Part shown: one piece after another, positions 18,780-62,783 of the stretch | Layout: every line of letters starts with the position of its first letter | Position numbering within the stretch: position 1 is the stretch's first letter | Origin: Chloroflexota bacterium | GTDB taxonomy: Bacteria; Chloroflexota; Limnocylindria; Limnocylindrales; CSP1-4 | Direction: 5' to 3' | Length of the DNA: 64,000 nt | Assembly: GCA_034436555.1 (NCBI GenBank) | Contig: DAOTUU010000033.1 | Location: 259,720 to 323,719 of the forward strand | The notes under the pieces: generated by a model | The model's input: only the letters and a program-made list of their open reading frames with translations | What the model was told of the DNA's origin: nothing | Database searches by the model: none | Position numbers and translations under genes: made by a program

Positions 18780-20075
18780 AGAATCCCCAGGCTCGGCTCG
18801 ATCCCGATCAGGCGGCCTCGTCGAGGGTGACGTGGTAGCCAAGGGCCTCGAGGCGCTTGACCGTGCGCCGCACGGTCGCTGTCCGATCGCGCTGGTCGAA
18901 CCAGGTCGGGCCCAGCTCCTGGTACACGACACCGTCCCGGAGCAGGTGATACACGATGACCAGGATGGAGTGCCCGACCGCGACGGCCGCCCGGCCGGCG
19001 CCGCGCCGCGCGGCGATGCGCCGGTACTGGGCGGCGAGATAGGTGCCCTTCGTATGGGCGGCCGCGTGGGCCGCCTCGACGAGCGCGGTGCGGAGCCAGG
19101 CGTTGCCCGGGCCGGTCGCCCCGGATCGGCGCTTGCCGGCGCTCTCGTCGGTGCCAGGGCAGACCCGCGCCCAGGAGGCGAGGTGGGCTGCGGACGGGAA
19201 GCGGGACATGTCCGGGCCGATCTCCGCGAGGATGGCCTCAGCCGTCCGCAGCGCGACACCCGGGATGGAGTCGACGAGCGCCAGCGTGGCCCCGAAAGGG
19301 CGCATCCGCTCCGCCACCTCGGCCGACAGGGTCGCGATCTCAGCGTCCAGGAAGTCGATGTGCCGCAGCTGCGCCCCGAGCATCCGACGCTGGTGCTCGC
19401 CGAGCAGGCCGCGGAGCGCGGCCACGAGCCGGTCGTGCTTGGAGCGCAGTCGCCCGCGTGCGAGCCCCGCGAGCGCCTCGGCATCGTCACCCCCGGCCAC
19501 GATCGCCTCGAGCATCGCCCGCCCTGACACCCCCAGCAGGTCGGAGGCGACCGCGCCGAGCTTGATGTCGGCGCCCTCGAGGACCTTGTGCAGCCGCTGG
19601 ACCTCGCGGCCGCGCTCGTCGATCAGCCTGCGCCGGTGGCGCACGAGCTCGCGCTGGGCCCGGTCGGGGACGAAGCTGCCCCGCAGCAGGCCGTGGCGCA
19701 GCAGGTCGGCGACCCGCTCCGCGTCCCTCACGTCGGTCTTGCGTCCGGGCACCGCGCGCATGTGGCGGGCGTTCACGAGGAGCAGCTCGAGGCCGCCACC
19801 CTCGAGCAGGTTGTACACCGGCTTCCAGCAGACGCCGGTGCTCTCCATCGCGGCGTGGGTCACGCCCCGATCGGCGAGCCAGTCGGCCAGCTCGAGCAGG
19901 CCGGCGGTGACCGCACCGAACGTGCGCACCTCGCGGCCCTCGGGGGTGATGACGCAGGCGACCACCGTGTCCCGGTGGACGTCGAGCCCTGCGCAACGTT
20001 CGTGGAGCACCTCCATCGCGCACCTCCATCCGGTCTGGCGGTGGCGGGCTCGACGACCGGAGCGCGAGAATCTAG
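18780..20075 (-). mobile_element. IS110-family insertion sequence nested inside the IS3 element
   Basis: The transposase gene fills most of the element. Junctions carry TAGCCTG/AGAATC (18771-18784) and GAGAATC/TAGCCTG (20066-20079). Boundaries are approximate. Confidence 0.65.
18808..20016 (-). CDS. IS110-family transposase (DEDD N-terminal domain + C-terminal transposase_20 domain)
   Basis: MEVLHERCAGLDVHRDTVVACV (DEDD motif 1), ESTGVCWKP. C-terminal LRTALVEAAHAAAHTKGTYLAAQYRRIAARRG. GGAGGTG RBS 5 nt upstream of ATG 20016. Confidence 0.9.
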   Translation of the reverse strand: MEVLHERCAGLDVHRDTVVACVITPEGREVRTFGAVTAGLLELADWLADRGVTHAAMESTGVCWKPVYNLLEGGGLELLLVNARHMRAVPGRKTDVRDAERVADLLRHGLLRGSFVPDRAQRELVRHRRRLIDERGREVQRLHKVLEGADIKLGAVASDLLGVSGRAMLEAIVAGGDDAEALAGLARGRLRSKHDRLVAALRGLLGEHQRRMLGAQLRHIDFLDAEIATLSAEVAERMRPFGATLALVDSIPGVALRTAEAILAEIGPDMSRFPSAAHLASWARVCPGTDESAGKRRSGATGPGNAWLRTALVEAAHAAAHTKGTYLAAQYRRIAARRGAGRAAVAVGHSILVIVYHLLRDGVVYQELGPTWFDQRDRTATVRRTVKRLEALGYHVTLDEAA

Positions 20076-21300: not shown

Positions 21301-22413
21301 TCAGGTGGGTTCGGGGTCGTCAGGATCGCCGGTCGGGACGCCTTCGGCGGTCGCCGCGGACCGGCCATGCGGGTCGCCTGGGCGATGGACGTCGCGATAC
21401 CGCCAGCGCCGGTAGCGGTCACGGGCGGTCGCCCCCAGCCCCAGGACACGGGAGCCGACGGGAGCCAGCGTCAGGCGCCACGCTCCCACGTAGTCGACCT
21501 CGTGCCCGCCGAAGCCGCTCTTGAACTGCTCGATGCCCTCGCGCGGCAGGCCCCACAGGTCGTACTGCGTGTAGCCAGCCGCCTTCATGCGCCGCAGCGC
21601 CTCCCACTTGAGGAGGTAGTTCGCGCGACGCCGGGCGCCCTTCTCGGTGGTGCCGCCGTACAGGTCCGCGACCCGCCGGCCGCAGCCGACGAGGAGCACC
21701 GCCGCCACCGCCTCGCCCGTGTCCACGGCCTCCGCGAACAGCAGGTGGGCCTTGCCGCGCGGCGCCAGGTGGGTCCACATCTCCCGGAACGCCTCCTCGC
21801 TCCGGGGCGCGATGCCGGCCCGCTGCAGTGCCTCCGCGTGGATCGCGTGCAGCTCGCCGATGCGTGCCGCGTCGCCCGCGACCACGCACACTCCGAGCCG
21901 CTCCGACTTGGACACCGACTGGCGAGTCTTGCGGTGCATGCCCGCCAGGATCGCTGGCTCGTCCTGGGCCAGGTCGATGATGCGCGTGCGGTCGGGCTGG
22001 ACGTGGTCGGTGCGCCGCCATCCTGCGCGGATCAGCTCGCGCGCCAGCCGCCCGTCCCCCGCGTCCGCCTCGGGCTCCATCACGATCGTCGCTAGCCGGT
22101 GACGCCGCCCCGCCTCGCGCAGGCGCCGGGTGACGGCCAAGACCTGCGCCCGGCTCAGCGTCCCGTCCGCGGTGACGGGTCCGCGCGCGAGGTAGCCCAG
22201 CCCCCAGGGCAGGCCACGCGGACGCTGCACCAGCACCTGCGCCCCCACGAGGCCGCCGTCCGGGTCCGCGGCGACGCGGAACGAGGACCAGCCATTCGGC
22301 CGCTTGACCGCCGCCCAGGCGCTCGACTGGAGGTGGCAGGGCGCCGCGGACGCCGCCAGGAACGCCTCCCAGGCCACCTCGTCGACCTCCAGCCGGGCGG
22401 CGGCGTCGGTCAC
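21301..22413 (-). CDS. FemAB-family peptidoglycan aminoacyltransferase (tRNA-dependent lipid II peptidyltransferase-like)
   Basis: GTG 22413 overlaps the hisS stop (GTGA). WEAFLAASAAPCHLQSSAWAAVKRPNGW, YLLKWEALRRMKAAGYTQYDLWGLPREGIEQFKSGFGGHEV (Fem C-terminal signature). 370 aa. Confidence 0.8.
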   Translation of the reverse strand: MTDAAARLEVDEVAWEAFLAASAAPCHLQSSAWAAVKRPNGWSSFRVAADPDGGLVGAQVLVQRPRGLPWGLGYLARGPVTADGTLSRAQVLAVTRRLREAGRRHRLATIVMEPEADAGDGRLARELIRAGWRRTDHVQPDRTRIIDLAQDEPAILAGMHRKTRQSVSKSERLGVCVVAGDAARIGELHAIHAEALQRAGIAPRSEEAFREMWTHLAPRGKAHLLFAEAVDTGEAVAAVLLVGCGRRVADLYGGTTEKGARRRANYLLKWEALRRMKAAGYTQYDLWGLPREGIEQFKSGFGGHEVDYVGAWRLTLAPVGSRVLGLGATARDRYRRWRYRDVHRPGDPHGRSAATAEGVPTGDPDDPEPT

Positions 22414-23714
22414 GCGTCGCCGGTCCCGTGCTTGTGCTGCGCCTCGCCGCGCTGGAGGTCGCGGACAAGGTCGTCCAGGTCCACCCGGCGCTGGGTCCCT
22501 GCCTGGAGGTCCTTCACCTGGACCTGGCCCGCGGCGAGCTCATCTCCGCAGATGACCGCGAAGTGGGCGCCCTCCCGCGAGGCTCCCTCGAGCTGCTTGC
22601 CCAGCTTGCGCGGCGCCAGGTCCGCCCGCGCGGCGAGACCCCCGGCGCGCAGGAGCGTGGCGACCCGCAGGCGCGGCACGGTGTCCGCCGGATCGGCGCC
22701 CACCACCACGATGGCGGCGCGGGGTGGTGCGATCGGCTCCGCGCCCTGCTCCGCGAGCGCCAGCACCACCCGGTCAAGGCCCAGCCCGAAGCCGATGCCC
22801 GGCGTGGGCCGGCCGCCCAGCAGCTCCACCAGGCCGTCGTAGCGACCGCCGCCGCCGAGCGCCTGCTGCTGGCCCTCTGCCCCGGCGCGGTAGAACTCGA
22901 ACGCGGTGCGGGTGTAGTAGTCGAGGCCGCGCACCAGGCGGGGCGCGGGTCGGGGGCTGACGCCCAGCGCCGCGAGGTGCGCCCGGACGCCGTCATGGTG
23001 CGCCCGACAGGCGTCGCACAGGTGGTCCGTGATGGTGGGCGCGTCCGCGATGAGCGACTGCATCCGCTCGTCCTTGGAGTCCAGGAGCCGCAGCGGCGCC
23101 GTCTCCAGGCGCTGCCGCTCAAGCTCCGGCAGGTCATCCGCGAACCGTCGGAAGTGCGCCTGGAGCAGGGCCACGTACGCCGGGCGGCAGGCGCCATCGC
23201 CGATGGAGTTGAGCAGCACCTCGACACCCGACACGCCCGCCACGGCGTAGAACCGCAGCCCCAGCTCGACGATCTCGGCGTCGATGCCCGGGCCCGGGTC
23301 GCCGATCGCCTCCACGTCGAACTGCCAGAACTGGCGATACCGTCCCGCCTGGGGCCGGTCGTAGCGGAACATCGGCCCGGTCAGGGTCAGCTTCACGGGC
23401 TGGGGCAGCGTCTGCATGCCGTGCTGGATGTATGCCCGCACGAGTCCCGCGGTCGGCTCCGGACGGAGCGCCCAGCGCTCGCGCTCCTGGTCGCCGCGGC
23501 CGGCCTGGACCCGGAACAGCTCCTTCTCCACCACGTCCGTCACGGCGCCCACGCCCCGCTCGAACACCTCGCTCTGCTCGAACAGGGGCGTCTCGATGGG
23601 CTGGTACCCGTAGCGCGTCGCGAGGTCGCGGGCGATCGTCTCGAGACGCAGGAAGGCGGCCCGTTCGGGCGGCAGCAGGTCGCGGGTGCCCCGCGGGGCT
23701 TGGTACCTCGGCAC
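22410..23714 (-). CDS. hisS: Histidyl-tRNA synthetase
   Basis: Class II motifs 1/2/3 (RYQAPRGTRDLLP, FRYDRPQAGRYRQFWQ, GGGRYDGL). HisA/HisB anticodon-binding C-terminus. 434 aa. Confidence 0.9.
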   Translation of the reverse strand: MPRYQAPRGTRDLLPPERAAFLRLETIARDLATRYGYQPIETPLFEQSEVFERGVGAVTDVVEKELFRVQAGRGDQERERWALRPEPTAGLVRAYIQHGMQTLPQPVKLTLTGPMFRYDRPQAGRYRQFWQFDVEAIGDPGPGIDAEIVELGLRFYAVAGVSGVEVLLNSIGDGACRPAYVALLQAHFRRFADDLPELERQRLETAPLRLLDSKDERMQSLIADAPTITDHLCDACRAHHDGVRAHLAALGVSPRPAPRLVRGLDYYTRTAFEFYRAGAEGQQQALGGGGRYDGLVELLGGRPTPGIGFGLGLDRVVLALAEQGAEPIAPPRAAIVVVGADPADTVPRLRVATLLRAGGLAARADLAPRKLGKQLEGASREGAHFAVICGDELAAGQVQVKDLQAGTQRRVDLDDLVRDLQRGEAQHKHGTGDA

Positions 23715-28217: not shown

Positions 28218-29552
28218 ATGATGACCCGACCGCAGATGCCCGCGCGCCCCCGCCACGCACCGCTCGTGATGCTGCTGGTCGCCCTGCTGCTGGGGGGCGT
28301 CGGCGGCATGGCGGCTCGGACGCCCGCCGCATCCGCGGGCGGTCGCGTCCACGTCGGCCCGCTCGCGCTGGCCCAGGCGTCCCCGTCGGCGTCGCCGGGT
28401 CCCCTCGCCTCCCCGCTCGCATCGATCGTGCCGGCGCCGTTCGATGCGGCGCTCGCCGAGGCGCTCCAGCGGGTCGTCGACGCGTCGTGGAGGCGCATCC
28501 CGGCACCCGGCATCTCGGTGGCGGTGCGATTGGCCGACGGGCGCATCTGGACCGGCGTGGCCGGCGACCGCCGCCTGTCGCCGCCCGAGCCGGTCGACCC
28601 GGACACCGTGTTCGCCATCGCGAGCATCACCAAGACGTTCGTGACCGCGGTCGTGCTCCAGCTCGTCGATGAGGGGCGGCTCTCCCTGGATGACCCGCTG
28701 GGCCGCTTCCTGCCCCGCTTCCCGCGCGCCCGGGACATCACCATCCGACAGCTCCTGGGTCACACCAGCGGCGTGGCCGACTACTTCGGGAGCCCGAGCT
28801 ATGCGAGCAGGGTGTTCAGCCGTCCGGGCCGCACCTGGACCCGGGCCCAGATCCTGCGCCTCGTGGGCGCGTCCTACTGCGACCCTGGCGACTGCTTCCG
28901 CTACTCCAACACGAACTTCGTGCTGCTCGGCCTGGTGGTCGAACAGGTGACCGGGAAGGACCTGTCGACGGTCATCCGGCGGCGCCTGCTCGATCCGCTG
29001 GGCCTCGACCGCACCGTGTTCCAGCCCGACGAGCGCACGCCGCGAGACGCCGCGCACGGACACCTGTGGGGCGGCGGTGACACGTTCTACGACCAGACGG
29101 GCAGCAGCCGGGTGCTGCCGCATCGCTCGGCATCCACGGTGGCCTGGGCGGCGGGCGCCATGGCTTCCACGGCCGGCGACCTGGCGCGCTGGGCGGCGGC
29201 GCTGTACGGCGGCGACGTGCTGTCGGATGCGGCACGAGCGGAGATGCTCACCTTCCGCCGCAGGGATGCGTACGGGCTGGGGACGCGCACCCGCCAGTTC
29301 GGCGGACACCGCGCTATCGGCCATCTGGGAGGCATCCGGGGCTACGAGCTCGCGATGTGGTACTTCCCGGACGCTGGCGCGTCCGTGGTCGTGCTCACGA
29401 ACCGCGGCCTGTTCAGCACCGACCGGACCGTGAAGCTGCTCACGAAGGCGCTGTTCCGCCACCTCGACGGGGATTCGACGCTCTCCCCGGCGCCATCACC
29501 GAGCGCCTCCGGCGCCCCGCTCCCCTCCCCGTCGGCCGCGCCCCCGGCCTGA
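28218..29552 (+). CDS. Serine hydrolase of the beta-lactamase / penicillin-binding protein fold (class C-like, possible DD-peptidase)
   Basis: SITKTF (SxxK), YSNTNF (YxN), HLGGIRG near the C-terminus. Signal peptide and Ser/Pro-rich tail. Confidence 0.8.
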   Translation: MMTRPQMPARPRHAPLVMLLVALLLGGVGGMAARTPAASAGGRVHVGPLALAQASPSASPGPLASPLASIVPAPFDAALAEALQRVVDASWRRIPAPGISVAVRLADGRIWTGVAGDRRLSPPEPVDPDTVFAIASITKTFVTAVVLQLVDEGRLSLDDPLGRFLPRFPRARDITIRQLLGHTSGVADYFGSPSYASRVFSRPGRTWTRAQILRLVGASYCDPGDCFRYSNTNFVLLGLVVEQVTGKDLSTVIRRRLLDPLGLDRTVFQPDERTPRDAAHGHLWGGGDTFYDQTGSSRVLPHRSASTVAWAAGAMASTAGDLARWAAALYGGDVLSDAARAEMLTFRRRDAYGLGTRTRQFGGHRAIGHLGGIRGYELAMWYFPDAGASVVVLTNRGLFSTDRTVKLLTKALFRHLDGDSTLSPAPSPSASGAPLPSPSAAPPA

Positions 29553-29568: not shown

Positions 29569-30741
29569 TCAGCCGTCGGCGGCTGTGGGCGCCCCGGTCG
29601 ATCGTCGGCGATCGCCCAGGCGCCACGCGGTCCGCACCATCCCGCCCCGCAGGCGAGACGGCGCGACCTCATGGGCCCCCACGAACGACACGGGTCGGGC
29701 ACCCCACTGGAGCTTGAAGCGATACAGGTTCCACAGCGGATGGGAGTCGTCCTGGGGCAGGCCCGCGGCCGCGTGCGTGTCCACGCCACCCAGGTCATAG
29801 GTCGTGAAGCCCGCCTCCGCCGCCCAGCGGATGATCGTCCACTGCAGCAGGAAGTTGCCGGGCACCCGCCCCTGCTCGGTGTCTCCCTCGCCCGCCTGGA
29901 ACAGGATCGCCCTCGCACCCGCGTGGTGGACGAGCGTGTGGGCGATGTCCCGTCCGTCCAGCCGCGCGAACCACAGCGAGGCCGCTCCCGCCTCGATGAG
30001 GACCCGCGAGGCGGCCGAGTGGTATGCCTCGGGGCGAGGCGTGAACCCGGTCCGGTCCCCGGTCCGGGCAAGCATCCGGTAGGCCGCCTCGAGCGCCGGA
30101 GCCAGCTCCGCGGGGTCGCTGTGGCGGTCCAGGCGCACGATCTCCACGCCCGCCCTGCGAGCCTTCTCCACGTTCCTGCGGGTGTTCTCGTTGACGAGCG
30201 CCCGCTGGGCCGCCTCATCGCGATGAAGCGGCAGCAGCATGCCCGTGCGGGACACCTGGATCTGCCTGCGGGCGGGCGTGAACCCGGCACCCAGCAGCGC
30301 GATCTCGAGCGGCGTGCCCGACTCCCAGGCCGGGTCGAGGACCAGCAGCGCCGCGCGGCGTGACCGCGCGATGCGCACCAGGCCCGCCAGCGCTCCGCGC
30401 ACCGCAGCCGGATCGTCACGCAGCAGCACCGGACCGAACGGCGCGTACAGGAACCGCCCCGGCAGCGCGGTCACGCGTCCGATGCGCGGCCCCCTCGGCA
30501 GGCGGCGAGCCAGCGGACCCGCCACGAGCCGCTCCTGGATCGAGACGACCGCGACGGGTCCGTCCGCGTCCTCGATGCGATAGCGCCCCACGTCCCAGCC
30601 GGCGGCGCCCTTGAACGCCCCCCAGGCGTGCGACTGGAGCGCCTCGCCCCGCGGTGAACGGACCGCGAGCGCATCCCAGGCGTCCGGTGCGGGCGCCGCC
30701 AGCGTCACGACCCGGACGCCGGGCCCGCGGTCGTCGCTCAC
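29569..30741 (-). CDS. FemAB-family peptidoglycan aminoacyltransferase
   Basis: GTG 30741 overlaps the murE stop (GTGA). DAWDALAVRSPRGEALQSHAWGAFKGAAGWDVGRYRIE ... NFLLQWTIIRWAAEAGFTTYDLGGVD ... NLYRFKLQWGARP. Confidence 0.8.
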   Translation of the reverse strand: MSDDRGPGVRVVTLAAPAPDAWDALAVRSPRGEALQSHAWGAFKGAAGWDVGRYRIEDADGPVAVVSIQERLVAGPLARRLPRGPRIGRVTALPGRFLYAPFGPVLLRDDPAAVRGALAGLVRIARSRRAALLVLDPAWESGTPLEIALLGAGFTPARRQIQVSRTGMLLPLHRDEAAQRALVNENTRRNVEKARRAGVEIVRLDRHSDPAELAPALEAAYRMLARTGDRTGFTPRPEAYHSAASRVLIEAGAASLWFARLDGRDIAHTLVHHAGARAILFQAGEGDTEQGRVPGNFLLQWTIIRWAAEAGFTTYDLGGVDTHAAAGLPQDDSHPLWNLYRFKLQWGARPVSFVGAHEVAPSRLRGGMVRTAWRLGDRRRSTGAPTAADG

Positions 30742-32330
30742 GATGACGTCCCGGTCGCCGTCCAGCCCAGGCCCGCCAGCACCTCGCGCGCCACGGTCGC
30801 CTCGTCCCAGGCCAGCGTCCCCGATGCCCGCTCGATGGTCTGCTCGTGGCCCTTGCCGGCGAGCAGCACGACATCGCCGGGCCTCGCGCGGGCCATCGCC
30901 TGTTCGATGGCGGCACGCCGGTCGGCGATGAGGAGGAGCGACCGGCCGCGGATGCCGCCACCCTGCTCGGCACCCTCGGCGATCTCCTCGAGGATCGCCT
31001 CGGGATCCTCCGAGCGGCCATCCTCGTCGGTGAGCACGACCAGCCGGCAGCGCTCCGCGGCCACGCGGCCCATCTCCGGTCGCTTCGTGCGGTCACGGTC
31101 GCCCGCGGAGCCGAACACCGCGACGAGCCCGCCCCCGTCGGCCGCCGCCGCCGGCGCGAGGTTGTCCAGCACCTTCGCCAGCGAGTCGGCGGTGTGGGCA
31201 TAGTCCACGATGACGCCGAAGGGCTGTCCCCGGTCGATCCGCTGCATCCGTCCGGGCACGCTCTCCACGGCCCCGATGCCGGCGCGCATGGCGGCCGGAT
31301 CCAGGCGCAGCGCCTCTCCCACCCCGATCGCGGCGAGCGCGTTGTGGGCGTTGAAGCGGCCCGCCAGCCGCAGCGCCAGGTCGTCCTCCCAGCGGGGCGT
31401 GCGGACGCGCAGTCGCATCCCGGTCGCGTCCTCTCGCAGACTGAGCGTCCGGATGTCGGCGGTCGGGCCCGCGCCATAGCCGTGGACGGTCGCGCCCGCC
31501 GCGCGCGCGGCGGCGCCGAACGCGCCCGCGACGGGATCGTCCAGGTTGACGACGGCGTGCTTGCCGTGGCCCTTCTCGGGGTTGGCGGGACCGCTCGCGA
31601 GCCACTCGAACAGGCGTCGCTTGGCCGCGATGTACGCGTCGCGGGTGCCGTGGAACTCGAGGTGCTCGGAGGTGACGTTGGTGAGCACGCCGACGTCGTA
31701 GGCGACCTCCGCGACACGGTCCTGGGCGAGGCCGTGGGAGGTGGACTCGACGACGGCCCAGCGATCTCCGGCATCGCGCATCGCGGCCAGCTGGGCCTGG
31801 AGCTCGGGCGCCTCGGGCGTGGTCGCCCGGGCCGGGTTGCCCCGGCTGCGCCCGCCCACGATGACATCGATGGTGCCGGTCAGGCCGGTCTGGAGGCCGC
31901 ACGCCTCGAGCATCGCCCGCACCAGCCACGCGGTGGTCGTCTTGCCGTCCGTGCCGGTGATGCCGACCACGCCCAGGTCGCGGCTCGGCTGATCGTGGAT
32001 CCAGGCCGCGGCCAGCGCGAGGGCCCGCCGCCCCTGGGTCACCAGCAGCTGCGGCACCGGCAGACCGGGCGTCGCTCGCTCCGCCACGACCGCCACCGCG
32101 CCCGAGGCCACCGCCGCCGGGACATGGTCGTGGCCGTCGGCGTGCCGGCCCCCGATGGCCACGAACAGGTCGCCCGGCGCCACGCGTCGGGAGTCCATCG
32201 CGACGGCGCGCACGAGGAGGTGCGCCGCCGGCTCCGCGTTCACCGCGAGGATGGCGCGCAGCAGCCCGCGCGCCGCGAGCAGGCCAACGAGACGGCCGAG
32301 CATCCGGCTCCGGTCGTCGGCCCGCGTCAT
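30738..32330 (-). CDS. murE: UDP-N-acetylmuramoyl-L-alanyl-D-glutamate--diamino acid ligase (MurE)
   Basis: MTRADDRSRMLG ... VVGITGTDGKTTTAWLV (Mur ligase P-loop), VVESTSHGL, DYAHTADSL, VFGSAGDRD. 530 aa. Start overlaps the upstream Fem stop (ATGA). Confidence 0.85.
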   Translation of the reverse strand: MTRADDRSRMLGRLVGLLAARGLLRAILAVNAEPAAHLLVRAVAMDSRRVAPGDLFVAIGGRHADGHDHVPAAVASGAVAVVAERATPGLPVPQLLVTQGRRALALAAAWIHDQPSRDLGVVGITGTDGKTTTAWLVRAMLEACGLQTGLTGTIDVIVGGRSRGNPARATTPEAPELQAQLAAMRDAGDRWAVVESTSHGLAQDRVAEVAYDVGVLTNVTSEHLEFHGTRDAYIAAKRRLFEWLASGPANPEKGHGKHAVVNLDDPVAGAFGAAARAAGATVHGYGAGPTADIRTLSLREDATGMRLRVRTPRWEDDLALRLAGRFNAHNALAAIGVGEALRLDPAAMRAGIGAVESVPGRMQRIDRGQPFGVIVDYAHTADSLAKVLDNLAPAAAADGGGLVAVFGSAGDRDRTKRPEMGRVAAERCRLVVLTDEDGRSEDPEAILEEIAEGAEQGGGIRGRSLLLIADRRAAIEQAMARARPGDVVLLAGKGHEQTIERASGTLAWDEATVAREVLAGLGWTATGTSS

Positions 32331-33424
32331 GCGCCCGCCCCCCCGGCGGTCGAGGCCATGGGCCCGGTGGTGCCGCGGAGGCGGAGCCGCCGGACACCCC
32401 GGACCCACAGGCGCCGACCCAGGACCATCGCGTCCCGCAGGATGGGCAGGGTCACCAGGTCGAGCGCGCCGACGTAGCGGACCTCGTGGCCGCCGAACCC
32501 CGCCTTGAACTGCTCGATGCCCGGGTGCGCCAGGCCCCACATGTCGTAGGTGTCGCAGCCCGCCGCGATCGACCGGCGCAACGCCTCCCACTTCAGCAGG
32601 TAGTTGGCCCGGGAGTCGGCGCCCGCCTGCGTCATGCCGCCATACGGCTCGGCCATCCGGTCGCCGCAGCGCACCAGGAACAGGGCCGCGACCGGGACCC
32701 CGTCGGACGTGTGCGCCAGCAGCAGCGATGCCTGGCCCGTCGGCAGGAAGGCATCCCACACCGCCTCGTAGGAGGCCAGGGACCGATGGAAGAAGCCCGT
32801 GCGCGCGGCGGTGTCGGCGAGGATGGCGTGGAACGCCGGCAGGTCCGCGCGGCCGCCCTCCCGGACCGCCACGCCAGAGCGCGTGGCCCGGCCCACGTAT
32901 TGCCGCCACTTGGAGCGCAGGCCCGCCCACACGGCGGCCTCGCCGGGCGCGAGGTCCACCACCCGGCTGCGGTCGTGCTGGACGGCGTCCGCATCCCGCC
33001 ACCCGCAGTGCCGCAGCAGCAGCGCCGCCGACACGTCCTCCCTGCCGGGATCCACCGTCACGTGGGTCAGGCGGTGGCGCCAGGCCGCCCTGCGCAGCGC
33101 GGCGGTGAACGCCGCGACCGACGGCTCGTCCCAGGTCGTGGCGATCGGACCGCGCGGCGCATAGCCCATCGCGAACGGTCCGGGACCCAGCCTGCGGACG
33201 AGGACCTGGGCGCCGATCGGACCGCTGCCGCCGTCGGCGACGACTCGTGTCGAGGTCCAGCCGTTGGGCCGCTTGCTGATGGCCCAGGCGGTTTGCTGGA
33301 GATGGTTCGGCGTGGCGCTCGCGGCGACGAAGGCATCCCATGTCGCGTCGTCTCGTCGGAGGGCGGCGAGCGAGGGACCGGCCTCGACCGCCCGGCCCGT
33401 CGGGATGCCGGGAGTGGTGGTCAT
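32327..33424 (-). CDS. FemAB-family peptidoglycan aminoacyltransferase
   Basis: ATG 33424 overlaps the upstream stop (ATGA). ATWDAFVAASATPNHLQQTAWAISKRPNGW ... NYLLKWEALRRSIAAGCDTYDMWGLAHPGIEQFKAGFGGHEV. Confidence 0.8.
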   Translation of the reverse strand: MTTTPGIPTGRAVEAGPSLAALRRDDATWDAFVAASATPNHLQQTAWAISKRPNGWTSTRVVADGGSGPIGAQVLVRRLGPGPFAMGYAPRGPIATTWDEPSVAAFTAALRRAAWRHRLTHVTVDPGREDVSAALLLRHCGWRDADAVQHDRSRVVDLAPGEAAVWAGLRSKWRQYVGRATRSGVAVREGGRADLPAFHAILADTAARTGFFHRSLASYEAVWDAFLPTGQASLLLAHTSDGVPVAALFLVRCGDRMAEPYGGMTQAGADSRANYLLKWEALRRSIAAGCDTYDMWGLAHPGIEQFKAGFGGHEVRYVGALDLVTLPILRDAMVLGRRLWVRGVRRLRLRGTTGPMASTAGGAGA

Positions 33425-35592
33425 GGGCCCGCCCGGAGCCTGCGCACGGCGCCCACCGACCGACGCGAGACGCGCCCCGCCCGATCGGCCCAGGGACGCA
33501 GAACGATGCGGCGCGCGGGCTCCCGGTCCACCCACACCGCCCCGAAGCCCGCCTTGTGCTCGTAGAGTCCGTGGTTCGGATCGCCCGGTCGTGGCGGCTC
33601 ACGACGACCGGGCAGGTCCACGCCGCCCAGATCGACATGACGCGCTCCCTCCAGCAGCGCGTCCGCCAGGAGCGTCGATCGCACCAGGTGCATGGTGCCC
33701 GGCAGCTCCCGCCGCCGGGTCGCGTCATCGGCGGAGTACGCCGTGGCGAACGCACCCCCCTGGAGGAACACCAGCACGCCGCCGAGCACCGCACCCTCGC
33801 GCTCGGCGACGTACAGGCGTGCCTGACCTGCCGCGATGAGCCGGGCCCAGAAGGCGAGATAGCCCAGCTCCGGGCGCATCGGGATGCCCAGGTCCTCCGC
33901 CCGCGCCACGAGCAGCTCGCCGAAGCGAGCGAGACGATCGCCCGCGGCGTCCACGCGGACCGAGACGCCCGACCTCTCGGCGCCCCGGATGCGCTGGCGC
34001 GTGCTCTTGGAGTAGGAGCCGAACAGCGCATCGACGTCCCGACCACCGGGCAGGACCAGGCGCATGACGTGGATGCTCGGCTGGACCTCCGCGGTGACCC
34101 CGAAGCCCGAGCGCTCCAGCGCCGCCGCCCAGGCCGGGTCGGCATCCCGCTCGGGATCGAGGAACAGCTCCGTGGCGCCCGCGTCGCGGGCCACACCCGC
34201 CAGCCGGACCACCCGATCGACGACGACCTCCACCGGGTCGCCGGCGTGCGCGGGACCCTTGCGACAGGTGGCGATGACGCCCGGCACGAGGCGCTGGCGG
34301 CGCAGCACGAGCAGGGCGCCCCGATCGTCCCCCAGGTCGACGAACCGAGGGTCCGCGCCCTGGGACCGGCGATGGTCCGCCCATGCCGTCCCCTGCATCA
34401 CGTGACCCCCCGGCACATCCACGGTCCGGGCGTTCCAGCCGTCGGGAGGAGCGACGGGCGGCCCGGGGGGCGCGTCCGACCGACCGGTCACGCCGTGACG
34501 GACGGTCCGGACGAGCCGGAGGCCAGCCGAGCGGCCCCGCTCTGCGACGGTCACGAGGGAGGCGGCCCGCGGGTCGGTCAGTAGGCGCCATGCGGCGACG
34601 TACCGCCGCTCCGTGCCACCGAACCCGGCCTTGAACGTCGCGACGCCGTCCGCGTCGGTGCCCCACATGTCGTAGCGCGCCATGCCCCGCTCGGCGGATC
34701 GGCGGATGGCCTCCCACTTCAGGAGGTGGTTCGCGCGACCGTGGGCGCCCTCCTGCGAGGAGGCGCCGTAGAGCTCGATGACCCGGTCCCCGCAGTCCAG
34801 CAGGAGCAGCGTCGCGACGGCCGCTCCGCCCGGCGCCCGCGCGATGAGCAGCCGCGCTCCGCCGCGCCGGGCCCACGCCGCATGCACGGCCCGGAACGCG
34901 GCGCCCGGTTCGAAGCCGACGCGCCGTGCCGTCTCGCGATACAGCGCCTCGAAATCGTCGAGGCCCTCCGCCCCCGCCTCGGCCACCAGGAATCCCGAGC
35001 GCCGCGCCTTGTTGACCGACCAGCGCGCGCTGGAGCGCAGGTCCCCCCACAGTTCGACCTCGGGCCGTCGCAGGTCGATGATCCGGGTGCGGTTGATCTG
35101 GATCTCGCCCGCGGGCTCCCATCCCGCCGCGGACAGCCAGCCCGCGGCCGGACCCTCGGCGTCGAGCTCCGGGTCGATCGTGACGTGGATCAGCCGCTCC
35201 TCCGCGGCGACGGCGCGCACCGCGCGGGTGAACGCGATGACGCCCGGCCCGTCGACCGTGGCGGCCACCGGGCCCCGAGGCGCATAGGCACGCGCCCACG
35301 GACCCGGCCGCAGCGATCGGATGAGCATCTGCGCCCCGATCGGTCGCCCATCCGACTCGGCGATCACCCGGCGCGTCCGCCAGCCCCTCGTGGCGTTCGC
35401 CTCCGCCCATGCGGTCAGCTGGGGGAACGATCCGTTCGGCGATGCCGCGACGAACGCGTCCCAGGCATCCGGGTCCTGGCGCAGCCGGTCCGCCAGGCGC
35501 GGCGTCGGGACATCCGACTGGACGCGGGTCTGGGCGCCCCTCCGGTCAACAGCGTCCGTGGCCGTCGCTGGAGCGGCGGTCACGTCGGTCAT
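33421..35592 (-). CDS. Tandem double FemAB-domain protein (two complete Fem aminoacyltransferase modules in one ~723-aa polypeptide)
   Basis: Module 1: PDAWDAFVAASPNGSFPQLTAWAEANATRGW ... NHLLKWEAIRRSAERGMARYDMWGTDADGVATFKAGFGGTER. Module 2: HVMQGTAWADHRRSQGADPRF ... YEHKAGFGAVWVD. ATG 35592 overlaps the murJ stop. Confidence 0.75.
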   Translation of the reverse strand: MTDVTAAPATATDAVDRRGAQTRVQSDVPTPRLADRLRQDPDAWDAFVAASPNGSFPQLTAWAEANATRGWRTRRVIAESDGRPIGAQMLIRSLRPGPWARAYAPRGPVAATVDGPGVIAFTRAVRAVAAEERLIHVTIDPELDAEGPAAGWLSAAGWEPAGEIQINRTRIIDLRRPEVELWGDLRSSARWSVNKARRSGFLVAEAGAEGLDDFEALYRETARRVGFEPGAAFRAVHAAWARRGGARLLIARAPGGAAVATLLLLDCGDRVIELYGASSQEGAHGRANHLLKWEAIRRSAERGMARYDMWGTDADGVATFKAGFGGTERRYVAAWRLLTDPRAASLVTVAERGRSAGLRLVRTVRHGVTGRSDAPPGPPVAPPDGWNARTVDVPGGHVMQGTAWADHRRSQGADPRFVDLGDDRGALLVLRRQRLVPGVIATCRKGPAHAGDPVEVVVDRVVRLAGVARDAGATELFLDPERDADPAWAAALERSGFGVTAEVQPSIHVMRLVLPGGRDVDALFGSYSKSTRQRIRGAERSGVSVRVDAAGDRLARFGELLVARAEDLGIPMRPELGYLAFWARLIAAGQARLYVAEREGAVLGGVLVFLQGGAFATAYSADDATRRRELPGTMHLVRSTLLADALLEGARHVDLGGVDLPGRREPPRPGDPNHGLYEHKAGFGAVWVDREPARRIVLRPWADRAGRVSRRSVGAVRRLRAGP

Positions 35593-37151
35593 CCGCGACC
35601 GACGGCCGAGCGCGTCAGGTGGACGGCCCTGGACAGTTCGGGAGTGCGCACGAGGCGACTGTACAGCAGGTACACGAGGAGAGCGGCGCCGCCGCCGACG
35701 ACCACCTGGAGGAGCGCGGCCACCCAGGGCGTGCCGCCGACTCCGGCGCCGGCCAGCCAGCCGCCCACGAGCGCCGCCGTGCCGGCCGCGAGCAGCGCCC
35801 CGACGACGAACGACGCGGCCCTCGCGAACGGGCGGAGCCCGAAGGCCGGGACGCGTCGATGGAGCAGCAGCGTGAGCGCGACCGCCTCGAACCAGCCACC
35901 GAGCGCGATGCCCAGCGCCAGGCCCTGGAGCCCGAGGGTCTGCCACGTGAGCAGCGACACCGCCACGTTGATGCCCACCGAGGCGACCGCCACGGTCACC
36001 GGGGTGCGCGTGTCGCGCCCGGCGTAGAAGCCGCGCGCGAGGATGACGTTCGCCGCATGGGCCGGCAGCCCCAGCAGGAAGACCGCCAGCGTGGCCGCGG
36101 TCGCCTCGACGGCGGCCTCGTCGAATCCCGGGAACAGCAGCTCGATGGATTGCACCCGGAACACGATGCCCACGGCCATGAGCAGCATCGTCATCCACAG
36201 CAGGAGCCGGACCGCCTCGCCCGTGAGCGTCGCGAACGTCGCCTGGTCATCCGACCCGCGCGACCGCGACATCGCAGGCAGGAGCACCATCCCCACCGGC
36301 ACCGCCACGACGCCCAGCGGGATCTGGAGCACGTTGAAGGCGATGTTGTAGACCGTGACCGCCGCCGCGCCGCCGAGCGCGAGCACCGTCACGGAGCTCG
36401 CCAGGGTGGTGTTCACGATGAACGTGACCTGGCTCGCACCCAGGCCGATGGCGCGAGGCACCATCAGGACGAGCGCCTCGCGCGCCTGGGGGTCACCGCC
36501 CCGGATGACGGGCGTCCAGGCGAAGCGGCCGCGCAGCGCCGGCAGCTGGACCGCGAAGTGGAGCACCGACCCGATCACGACGCCCAGCGCCGCCGCCGTC
36601 ACGCCCAGCAGCGGCGCGAGCGCGATCGCGACCACGAGGATCGCGGCGTTGTAGGTCACCGGTGCCATCGCCGCCGCCCCGAACCGGTTGTCCGCGTTCA
36701 GGATGGCGGACACGATCGCGCCCAGCGCGAGGAAGACCGGCGAGAGCAGCATCAGTCGCGTGAGCTCGACCGTCTGGCGCACCTGCTCGGCGTCGAATCC
36801 GGACACGATGGCGGGCACGATCTGCGGGGCGAACAGGAACATCAGCACCGCGAACGCGAGCAGCGCCAGGAGCACCGTGTTCGCGACGGCCGAGGCGACG
36901 CGCCACGCGCGGTGCTCCTCGCCGCGCGACAGCAGCTGGCTGAGCACCGGGATGAGCGCCGAGCCGAGCGCCCCGGCCGCCACGAGCTGGTACACCAGGT
37001 CGGGGATGCGGAAGGCGGCGTAGAACGGACCCAGCTCTTCGGGCGTCCAGAGGTTGCCCAGGACCACGACGCGGCCCCAGCCGAGGACGCGCGACGCGAG
37101 GAAGAACGCGAAGACCGTGAACCCGGCCCGCGCGAGATCCTGACGGGTCAC
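35589..37151 (-). CDS. murJ: Lipid II flippase MurJ (MviN)
   Basis: 520 aa, 14 predicted TM segments. MurJ motifs (LASRVLGWGRVVVLGNLW, FYAAFRIPDLVYQLVAAGALGSALIPVLS). ATG overlaps the xer stop (ATGA). Confidence 0.85.
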   Translation of the reverse strand: MTRQDLARAGFTVFAFFLASRVLGWGRVVVLGNLWTPEELGPFYAAFRIPDLVYQLVAAGALGSALIPVLSQLLSRGEEHRAWRVASAVANTVLLALLAFAVLMFLFAPQIVPAIVSGFDAEQVRQTVELTRLMLLSPVFLALGAIVSAILNADNRFGAAAMAPVTYNAAILVVAIALAPLLGVTAAALGVVIGSVLHFAVQLPALRGRFAWTPVIRGGDPQAREALVLMVPRAIGLGASQVTFIVNTTLASSVTVLALGGAAAVTVYNIAFNVLQIPLGVVAVPVGMVLLPAMSRSRGSDDQATFATLTGEAVRLLLWMTMLLMAVGIVFRVQSIELLFPGFDEAAVEATAATLAVFLLGLPAHAANVILARGFYAGRDTRTPVTVAVASVGINVAVSLLTWQTLGLQGLALGIALGGWFEAVALTLLLHRRVPAFGLRPFARAASFVVGALLAAGTAALVGGWLAGAGVGGTPWVAALLQVVVGGGAALLVYLLYSRLVRTPELSRAVHLTRSAVGRG

Positions 37152-62708: not shown

Positions 62709-62783
62709 TGGTAGCCGAGGGCGGATTTGAACCACCGACCAAGGGCTTATGAGTCCCCTGCTCTACCACTGAGCTACTCGGCC
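62709..62783 (-). tRNA. tRNA with CAU anticodon (tRNA-Met; the elongator vs tRNA-Ile2 lysidine type is not resolved), CCA encoded
   Basis: Minus strand GGCCGAGTAGCTCAGTGGTAGAGCAGGGGACTCATAAGCCCTTGGTCGGTGGTTCAAATCCGCCCTCGGCTACCA. 7-bp acceptor stem, D-arm GCTC/GAGC, anticodon loop CTCATAA, T-arm GGTGG-TTCAAAT-CCGCC. Ends +/-1. Confidence 0.8.

Follow-up and report, generated by a model that had tools for sequence, protein, structure and literature searches.

Why would a bacterium carry two Fem aminoacyltransferases in a single polypeptide chain? Fem transferases are textbook single-module enzymes, and it is not well understood how several of them work together on a single lipid II molecule. 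The question is raised by a gene in a 64,000-nucleotide stretch of DNA, referred to here as the window (positions 259,720 to 323,719 of the forward strand of contig DAOTUU010000033.1, assembly GCA_034436555.1). The host is an uncultured soil Chloroflexota bacterium, a high-GC member of the Limnocylindria, which is a widespread class of mostly uncultured soil and freshwater bacteria. The fused fem gene is located at 33421..35592 on the minus strand and encodes a protein of 723 amino acids (aa) that consists of an N-terminal Fem module (M1), a linker and a C-terminal Fem module (M2). This protein is a genuine M1–M2 fusion, and we propose that it probably acts as a bifunctional aminoacyl-tRNA-dependent transferase that builds part of a multi-residue branch on peptidoglycan.

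Is the open reading frame (ORF) real? The whole window has a G+C content of approximately 75%, and long spurious ORFs cover both strands; real frames were picked by the GC content of the third codon position (GC3). GC3 is high in a single frame over 33500-35500, and this frame is unchanged at the junction between the two modules near 34450-34500. The translation is free of stop codons up to its terminal TGA, which overlaps the ATG of the downstream gene femC. The ATG of the fused gene at 35592 shares an ATGA with the murJ stop, and homologues of the fused protein begin at the same 'MTDVTAA'. The coordinates and sequence motifs that the initial annotation of this locus had listed are exact: AWDAFVAASP...TAWA corresponds to aa 43-63, KWEAIRRS...FKAGFGG to aa 292-326, HVMQGTAWADHRRSQ to aa 397-411 and EHKAGFGAV to aa 678-686. 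In-frame GTG and ATG codons are found in or near the linker (aa 368 and 391-399). Internal initiation of M2 at these codons was considered, but no obvious purine-rich ribosome-binding sequence precedes the candidate start codons.

Each half of the protein is a Fem module in its own right. M1 (aa 33-366; 34495..35496, minus strand) is a FemX-like double-GNAT module that lacks a coiled-coil arm and ends in a C-terminal helix (aa 341-366). M2 (aa 383-723; 33424..34446, minus strand) is also a complete double-GNAT module of the FemX type and belongs to a distinct 'YEHK' subfamily. Each half was scanned alone against Pfam, where the gathering cutoffs are 24 bits for PF02388 (FemAB) and 22 bits for PF13480. 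M1 matches PF02388 with 91 bits (E=9.7e-26) and PF13480 with 54 bits (E=2.2e-14). M2 matches PF13480 with 39.4 bits (E=8.6e-10) and PF02388 with 26.5 bits (E=3.6e-6), just past the cutoff, and additionally yields a weak match to LPG_synthase_C. Among PDB sequences, the best match of M1 is Staphylococcus aureus FemX (6snr, E=6e-21), in an alignment that passes over the coiled-coil region of 6snr, and M2 matches Weissella viridescens FemX (FemX_Wv) over aa 394-659 (E=3e-9). A profile of 33 homologues improves these matches to 9e-39 for M1 and 3e-23 for M2.

The predicted structure agrees with the sequence matches. An AlphaFold2 model of the whole protein, built on the 33-homologue alignment, has a predicted local distance difference test (pLDDT) score of 87 and is confident in both halves, with M1 mostly above 90; only residues 1-30, 365-377 and 721-723 are disordered. 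The top Foldseek matches of the whole model are 6snr (FemX_Sa), 1ne9 and 4ii9 (FemX_Wv) and 1lrz (FemA), with a probability of 1.0. M2 modelled alone has a pLDDT of 90.8 and a predicted template modelling (pTM) score of 0.88, and it superimposes on full-length FemX_Wv with a template modelling (TM) score of 0.74-0.77 and a root-mean-square deviation of 3.2-3.4 Å (E=6e-20). By Pfam score, fold and catalytic lysine, both halves belong to the FemABX family. The claim of the initial annotation that a single polypeptide carries two complete Fem modules is thus borne out by the Pfam and PDB matches of each half and by the confident model. Its suggestion that the two halves together form a FemA-like pseudo-dimer misreads the fold, because every Fem module is already a double-GNAT pseudo-dimer (PMC12945691, PMC8280954). 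The fused protein therefore contains four GNAT-like subdomains.

The two modules are distant relatives. M1 and M2 share just 27-28% sequence identity, whereas M1 is 45-48% identical to FemC, and a recent internal duplication was rejected on these grounds. M1 is also 39-42% identical to a fifth Fem protein of the window, and M2 and FemD, the product of the last gene of the operon, represent separate, distinct subfamilies. Given the low identity between M1 and M2, the gene is a fusion of old paralogues rather than the product of a tandem duplication.

Could a sequencing or assembly frameshift have joined two genes that are separate in the living cell? A word-indexed protein search of JGI, ENA, NCBI and Logan assemblies recovers approximately 40 clusters of full-length fused homologues (690-777 aa, 45-76% identity, at least 92% coverage), and an identical 723-aa protein (P0001) is encoded on an independent contig. 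In NCBI, the fused homologues come from metagenome-assembled genomes (MAGs) of Chloroflexota and Ca. Limnocylindria and are named only 'peptidoglycan bridge formation glycyltransferase FemA/FemB family protein'. An exhaustive HMMER search also identifies stand-alone proteins of the M1 type, P0089 (369 aa, 60% identity, with six cluster members of identical length), and of the M2 type, P0087 (359 aa, 59% identity), P0088, P0090, P0091 and P0093.

A scan of species-representative genomes provides 79 loci, essentially all from Limnocylindria/Chloroflexota MAGs. Stop-to-stop ORFs of these loci were classed with module-specific hidden Markov models, and M1 is pairable with M2 in 51 related loci. 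M1 and M2 occupy one ORF in 19 of these 51 loci, which represent 18 distinct contigs from species-level Limnocylindria/Chloroflexota MAGs. The remaining 32 loci contain separate genes in the order M1 then M2, and the start of M2 overlaps the stop of M1 (GTGA or ATGA). Another 12 loci contain an M2 gene and, next after it, a FemC-like gene. Some apparent splits were rejected. The 434-aa protein P0051 is not a natural split but an assembly artefact, given that its contig L002 contains many broken genes (topA, murJ, murE and fem genes), and L019 and L036 are likewise frameshift-ridden MAG contigs that generate false single-module homologues.

In a neighbour-joining tree of the M1+M2 domains, fused forms fall into two separate clades, clade A (the window, L001 and L004-L015) and clade B (L003 and L016-L018). 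Clade B groups with split lineages as its sisters, fused forms also occur sporadically in L022 and L024, and the split locus L028 is nested in clade A. It follows that the ancestral state is a translationally coupled M1–M2 gene pair and that the fusion arose at least twice, via loss of the 4-bp overlap junction. The inter-module linker of the window protein (aa ~367-382; 34447..34494, minus strand) lies at the site of the GTGA stop/start overlap in split relatives. The linker is rich in Pro and Gly and variable in length and sequence, and its pLDDT falls below 50 at aa 365-377. The mean majority-residue fraction is 0.32 in the linker, compared with 0.73 in M1 and 0.75 in M2, and the two modules contain 71 and 69 invariant columns, respectively.

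The separate M1 and M2 genes of many relatives, with just 4 bp of overlap between them, the frameshift-ridden state of some assemblies of the group (L002, L019 and L036) and the split state of L028 within a fused clade would all fit a frameshift artefact. Nonetheless, this explanation is effectively refuted. GC3 points to a single frame throughout, the identical P0001 lies on an independent contig, and the approximately 40 clusters carry an in-frame linker of variable length. The initial annotation had named as the critical finding a frameshift or assembly error that fuses two genes separate in related genomes. The modules are indeed separate in many related genomes, but an error is excluded by these independent clusters and by the 18 distinct fused loci with an intact frame. 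The gene is thus a real evolutionary fusion.

Are both modules of the fused protein catalytically competent? In FemX_Wv, Lys305 is the catalytic residue (PMC9723616, PMC12945691). The neighbouring Phe304 stacks against tRNA nucleotide C75, is said to be 'conserved in all Fem transferases' and, when mutated, leaves FemX with a 16-29-fold lower turnover (PMC9723616). Lys36 and Arg211 hold the precursor in place by its phosphates and D-Ala residues (PMC2655667, PMC8280954), and Asn38, Trp39, Tyr103, Thr209, Tyr215 and Tyr256 also line the acceptor site (PMC8280954). These residues were mapped onto the modules using profile alignments and a joint MAFFT alignment.

Of the catalytic residues that the initial annotation had proposed to check by aligning each module separately to FemX, the lysine is kept in both. 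Lys305 corresponds to K321 in M1 (codon 34630..34632, minus strand) and K680 in M2, and Phe304 corresponds to F320 in M1 and H679 in M2 (H679-K680 codons 33553..33558, minus strand). K321, H679 and K680 are conserved without exception in all 33 fused homologues of the alignment. Asp108 is matched by D140 in M1 and D479 in M2, and the Asp of the DPE motif is invariant in both modules. Tyr256 is also retained in both (Y275 and Y619). At the other acceptor-site positions the modules diverge. M2 possesses R408 for Lys36, R573 for Arg211 and, for Tyr215, G577 with Y578 adjacent, and it contains A413 in place of Trp39. M1 keeps the tryptophan as W71 and possesses N66, E228 and A232 at the positions of Lys36, Arg211 and Tyr215. 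The Lys305-equivalent lysine is also found in FemC, FemD and Fem5, which retain the K...R anchoring pair and the F-K residues. Thus, both modules look catalytic but asymmetric in acceptor binding.

The asymmetry raises the possibility that one module is a pseudoenzyme and that the protein combines a catalytic module with a scaffold or regulatory partner, such as one limited to binding the substrate or the tRNA. Such an arrangement would fit the loss in clade A of the M1 anchoring residues at the N66 and E228 positions and of the Tyr215 equivalent (A232), the His of M2 in place of the reportedly universal Phe304 (PMC9723616), and the M2 score of only 26.5 bits on PF02388. We consider it unlikely, since neither module shows any variation at the catalytic Lys or the DPE Asp, and the invariant-column counts and mean conservation are equal in M1 and M2. 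Moreover, stand-alone M1- and M2-type genes persist in 32 genomes, and each is thus presumably an enzyme of its own. The 'HK' residues occur in every M2-type domain of the 79 loci, fused or split, with the exception of L022 (FK), and are therefore a mark of the subfamily rather than a sign of decay. The M2 subfamily appears to break the statement that Phe304 is conserved in all Fem transferases, and the aromatic His might stand in for Phe at this position. The idea in the initial annotation that one module has become regulatory is accordingly disfavoured by the Lys305 equivalent in both modules and by the near-equal numbers of invariant columns (71 versus 69).

How is the anchoring function distributed between the two partners? 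Among the 79 loci, M1 domains in which N or S replaces the lysine and E or Q the arginine of the K/R pair are limited to clade A. The pattern is reciprocal. Clade A combines an M1 without the K/R pair with an M2 that keeps the R/R/Y residues. In most other lineages, M1 contains K/R and M2 lacks the Arg573 equivalent, the residue at this position outside clade A usually being G, A, S or Q. The full anchoring pair is usually found on only one partner of M1 and M2. The K36/R211 pair characterizes FemX_Wv and MurM models and is not a proven requirement of the family.

This reciprocal distribution permits a more specific and rather doubtful interpretation, in which clade-A M1 gave up anchoring and relies on M2 to hold the precursor. 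The fused protein would then be a tethered two-site line that adds two residues without releasing the intermediate. If so, only one partner would ever anchor the precursor, and the separate proteins of split lineages would also form an obligate heterodimer. Such an enzyme would perform tRNA-fed, non-ribosomal, processive peptide synthesis with labour divided between fused Fem modules.

What is the acceptor of the transferred amino acids? The fused gene resides in an operon on the minus strand with the order murJ-fem(M1-M2)-femC-murE-femD, in which every junction is a 4-bp overlap. Immediately upstream of the fused gene, and joined to it by the ATGA overlap, is murJ (35589..37151; PF03023, E=2e-74), which encodes the lipid II flippase and is found at the same position in L001, L003 and L004. 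Downstream, femC (32327..33424) encodes a single-module Fem paralogue of 365 aa (PF02388, E=2e-30) and has ATGA overlaps at both ends. FemC keeps the K51/R214 pair and F306-K307 and scores 35.6 bits on NF047883. The next gene, murE (30738..32330), encodes a Mur ligase for the position-3 residue with Mur_ligase, Mur_ligase_M and Mur_ligase_C domains. It is followed by femD (29569..30741), whose start overlaps the murE stop through a GTGA. FemD is a fourth Fem module of 390 aa from a divergent subfamily (PF13480, E=3e-17; PF02388, E=7e-13) and contains K44, R236, Y240 and F342-K343. As a result, murE is flanked by four Fem modules in one operon (M1, M2, FemC and FemD). The same synteny is observed in L004 (GCA_046328165.1), and L001 contains murJ-fem2x-murE-fem without femC; femD follows murE in both loci. 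With four Fem modules around murE and a position directly after the lipid II flippase gene, peptidoglycan side-branch synthesis is by far the likeliest function.

It is very improbable in this context that the Fem-like modules aminoacylate a natural product, a lipid, a protein or another non-peptidoglycan molecule in the manner of the relatives VlmA, PacB, Sbb17 and the MprF type. The fold is common to Sbb17/Sba18 and the C-terminal domain of MprF, M2 exhibits the weak LPG_synthase_C match, and GNAT-fold aminoacyl-tRNA transferases do occur in natural-product pathways (PMC12945691). However, the best sequence and structure matches are FemX_Sa and FemX_Wv, the coupling to murJ and the operon shared with murE are conserved across the class, and no biosynthetic-cluster genes are found near the fused gene in the window neighbourhood.

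We therefore return to the bifunctional transferase that builds a peptidoglycan branch and outline how it could work. The M1 and M2 active sites would each transfer one amino acid, probably a different one, from aminoacyl-tRNA. These amino acids would extend the side branch that grows from the diamino acid at position 3 of the peptidoglycan precursor. Given that clade-A M1 has lost both basic anchoring residues and M2 keeps them, M2 probably holds the precursor, and M1 would work on a branch that is presented in cis or already extended. FemC and FemD would add further residues to generate a multi-residue interpeptide bridge, and MurJ would flip the finished lipid II after the branch is completed. 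The fusion would fix a 1:1 stoichiometry and hold both sites close to each other. Addition of two residues in a processive manner, which the initial annotation had raised, is plausible for the fused modules.

Do the two modules necessarily act in succession? M1 and M2 could instead act in parallel, on different acceptor positions, with alternative donors (like Ser and Ala for MurM) or on nucleotide- versus lipid-bound precursors. The low identity between the modules, their membership in different subfamilies and their different acceptor-site residues would suit such a division, four Fem modules in one operon exceed the need of a short bridge, and the predicted inter-module geometry is not fixed. 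We regard parallel action as quite unlikely, given that the unvarying M1-then-M2 order of adjacent genes and the two independent fusions speak for closely coupled steps and that the characterized Fem paralogues of one organism act sequentially, from FemX to FemA to FemB (PMC6428869).

Several observations weigh against the proposal that the fused protein is a two-step branch-building enzyme. First, the whole-protein model has a pTM of 0.53 and predicts no confident arrangement of one module relative to the other, and channelling between the modules is accordingly a conjecture. Second, most relatives use separate genes, and the fusion is thus not needed for function. Third, M1 lacks the Lys36 and Arg211 equivalents, and M2 has His for Phe304, so either module could be impaired. 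The K/R loss in M1 occurs in just one of the two fused clades and therefore represents a single evolutionary event. Fourth, the scores are far from the NCBIfam equivalog cutoffs, and no specificity is assignable. The fused protein scores 83.9 bits on NF047883 (UDP-MurNAc-pentapeptide-lysine N6-alanyltransferase), where the cutoff is 500, and 59 bits on TIGR03019 (PEP-CTERM-associated FemAB), where the cutoff is 260; its context is that of mur genes and not of XrtA and exopolysaccharide synthesis. Finally, the literature that we searched contains no description of Limnocylindria peptidoglycan chemistry.

Comparison with known systems places the fused protein close to FemX_Wv, a UDP-MurNAc-pentapeptide:L-Ala transferase (1ne9 and 4ii9). 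M1 and M2 share with FemX_Wv the coiled-coil-less double-GNAT fold and the Lys305 and Asp108 equivalents, and M2 additionally shares the Lys36, Arg211 and Tyr215 equivalents (R408, R573 and Y578). However, FemX_Wv is one module of 335 aa, whereas two modules are covalently joined here, each differing at the residues described above, and the identity is 22-25%. The lipid II glycyl transferases FemX, FemA and FemB of S. aureus (6snr and 1lrz) resemble the present system in that several paralogues work on one branch. FemA and FemB interact with each other and homodimerize, and it has been proposed that they act as dimers (PMC6135852, PMC6428869); the M1–M2 fusion would be a covalent counterpart of the physical FemA–FemB interaction. 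In contrast to M1 and M2, the staphylococcal enzymes are separate proteins and possess a coiled-coil arm (FemX residues 235-297, PMC8280954), and FemA and FemB need only one module apiece to add two Gly residues.

Two-residue branches are also built elsewhere by pairs of Fem enzymes. MurM and MurN of Streptococcus pneumoniae and BppA1 and BppA2 of Enterococcus faecalis are Fem paralogues that add residues 1 and 2 of a dipeptide branch in turn (for MurM, see PMC8280954). Unlike the fused M1–M2 protein, these enzymes are separate proteins. Close counterparts are the split Limnocylindria pairs (for instance L028, L044, L049 and L054; P0089 and P0087), whose orthologous modules are up to ~60% identical and are encoded in the same order after murJ with GTGA/ATGA coupling, but as two polypeptides. 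Other double-Fem proteins of ~700-770 aa exist, including P0110 (768 aa), P0132/P0262 (758-760 aa), P0121 (707 aa), P0099 (706 aa), P0156 from Caldilinea sp. and MCX6040185.1. They are 31-35% identical to the present protein, contain the canonical 'FK' in both modules, reside in contexts without mur genes and bear generic annotation, and they are thus independent fusions. The double-Fem architecture as such therefore recurs in databases. P0262, at L084 6001..8277 on a 5.03-Mb contig, adjoins a Bac_transf sugar transferase gene and a UDP-glucose pyrophosphorylase-family gene, and P0110 lies at L085 6001..8307 in a non-mur neighbourhood. Our literature search found no paper describing a tandem, fused or bifunctional Fem protein, which does not by itself prove that such proteins are unpublished, and a non-exhaustive search found nothing relevant on Fem proteins or peptidoglycan in Chloroflexi/Limnocylindria.

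The surroundings of the fused gene provide further observations on the cell wall of this organism. The MurE of the window carries the residues VVLTDEDGRSEDP, and at the DNPR position it appears to contain EDGR, in which Asp takes the place of Asn and Gly that of Pro. MurE enzymes that add diaminopimelic acid (DAP) bear a DNPR motif (PMC3829189). The EDGR residues hint that position 3 is not occupied by meso-DAP but by another residue, for example Lys or Orn, and this would be compatible with Fem-mediated branching. A cell-wall tRNA-Gly exists in S. aureus. No dedicated tRNA is found near the operon in the window, where the sole tRNA gene is tRNA-Met (62709..62783). Upstream of the operon are xerC-like and topA genes, and downstream are a divergent PF00144 gene and relA. 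The PF00144 gene (28218..29552, plus strand) encodes a member of the beta-lactamase/DD-peptidase family, lies beside femD and occupies the same place in L001, L002 and L004. Its product could be a cell-wall peptidase matched to an unusual bridge.

In several related sequences, apparent single ORFs also join MurJ to Fem (P0066, P0074, P0076, P0082-P0085 and P0118, and long ORFs in L026 and L030-L032), and this set includes one MurJ-Fem-MurE single ORF. These long ORFs may be real fusions or read-through/frameshift artefacts of noisy long-read assemblies.

A fifth Fem gene of the window, fem5, is located away from the operon at 21304..22413 on the minus strand. It encodes a protein of 370 aa (PF02388, 8e-22) that is 46% identical to FemC and that carries E113 at the position of the DPE Asp of the other modules. 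The fem5 start overlaps by 4 bp the stop of hisS, the histidyl-tRNA synthetase gene (22410..23714, minus strand). This adjacency is absent in the ~27 relatives whose loci span hisS completely and is therefore lineage-specific. An IS110-family transposase gene (DEDD_Tnp_IS110 and Transposase_20; 18808..20016, minus strand) is positioned ~1.3 kb from fem5 and may be relevant to the arrival of this extra copy.

What does the double-Fem protein mean for the Fem family and for the Limnocylindria? The practical impact is modest, given that the enzyme family and its chemistry are known and that fusions of sequential enzymes are common. For the family, the locus defines the M2-type subfamily, which appears to depart from the rule that Phe304 is universal. 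A natural M1–M2 fusion with split orthologues also offers a system to study the physical coupling of successive branch additions, and the comparison of fused and split forms bears on whether one partner alone must bind the precursor head group. For the Limnocylindria, four Fem modules around murE and a fifth nearby point to an unusually elaborate peptidoglycan cross-bridge.

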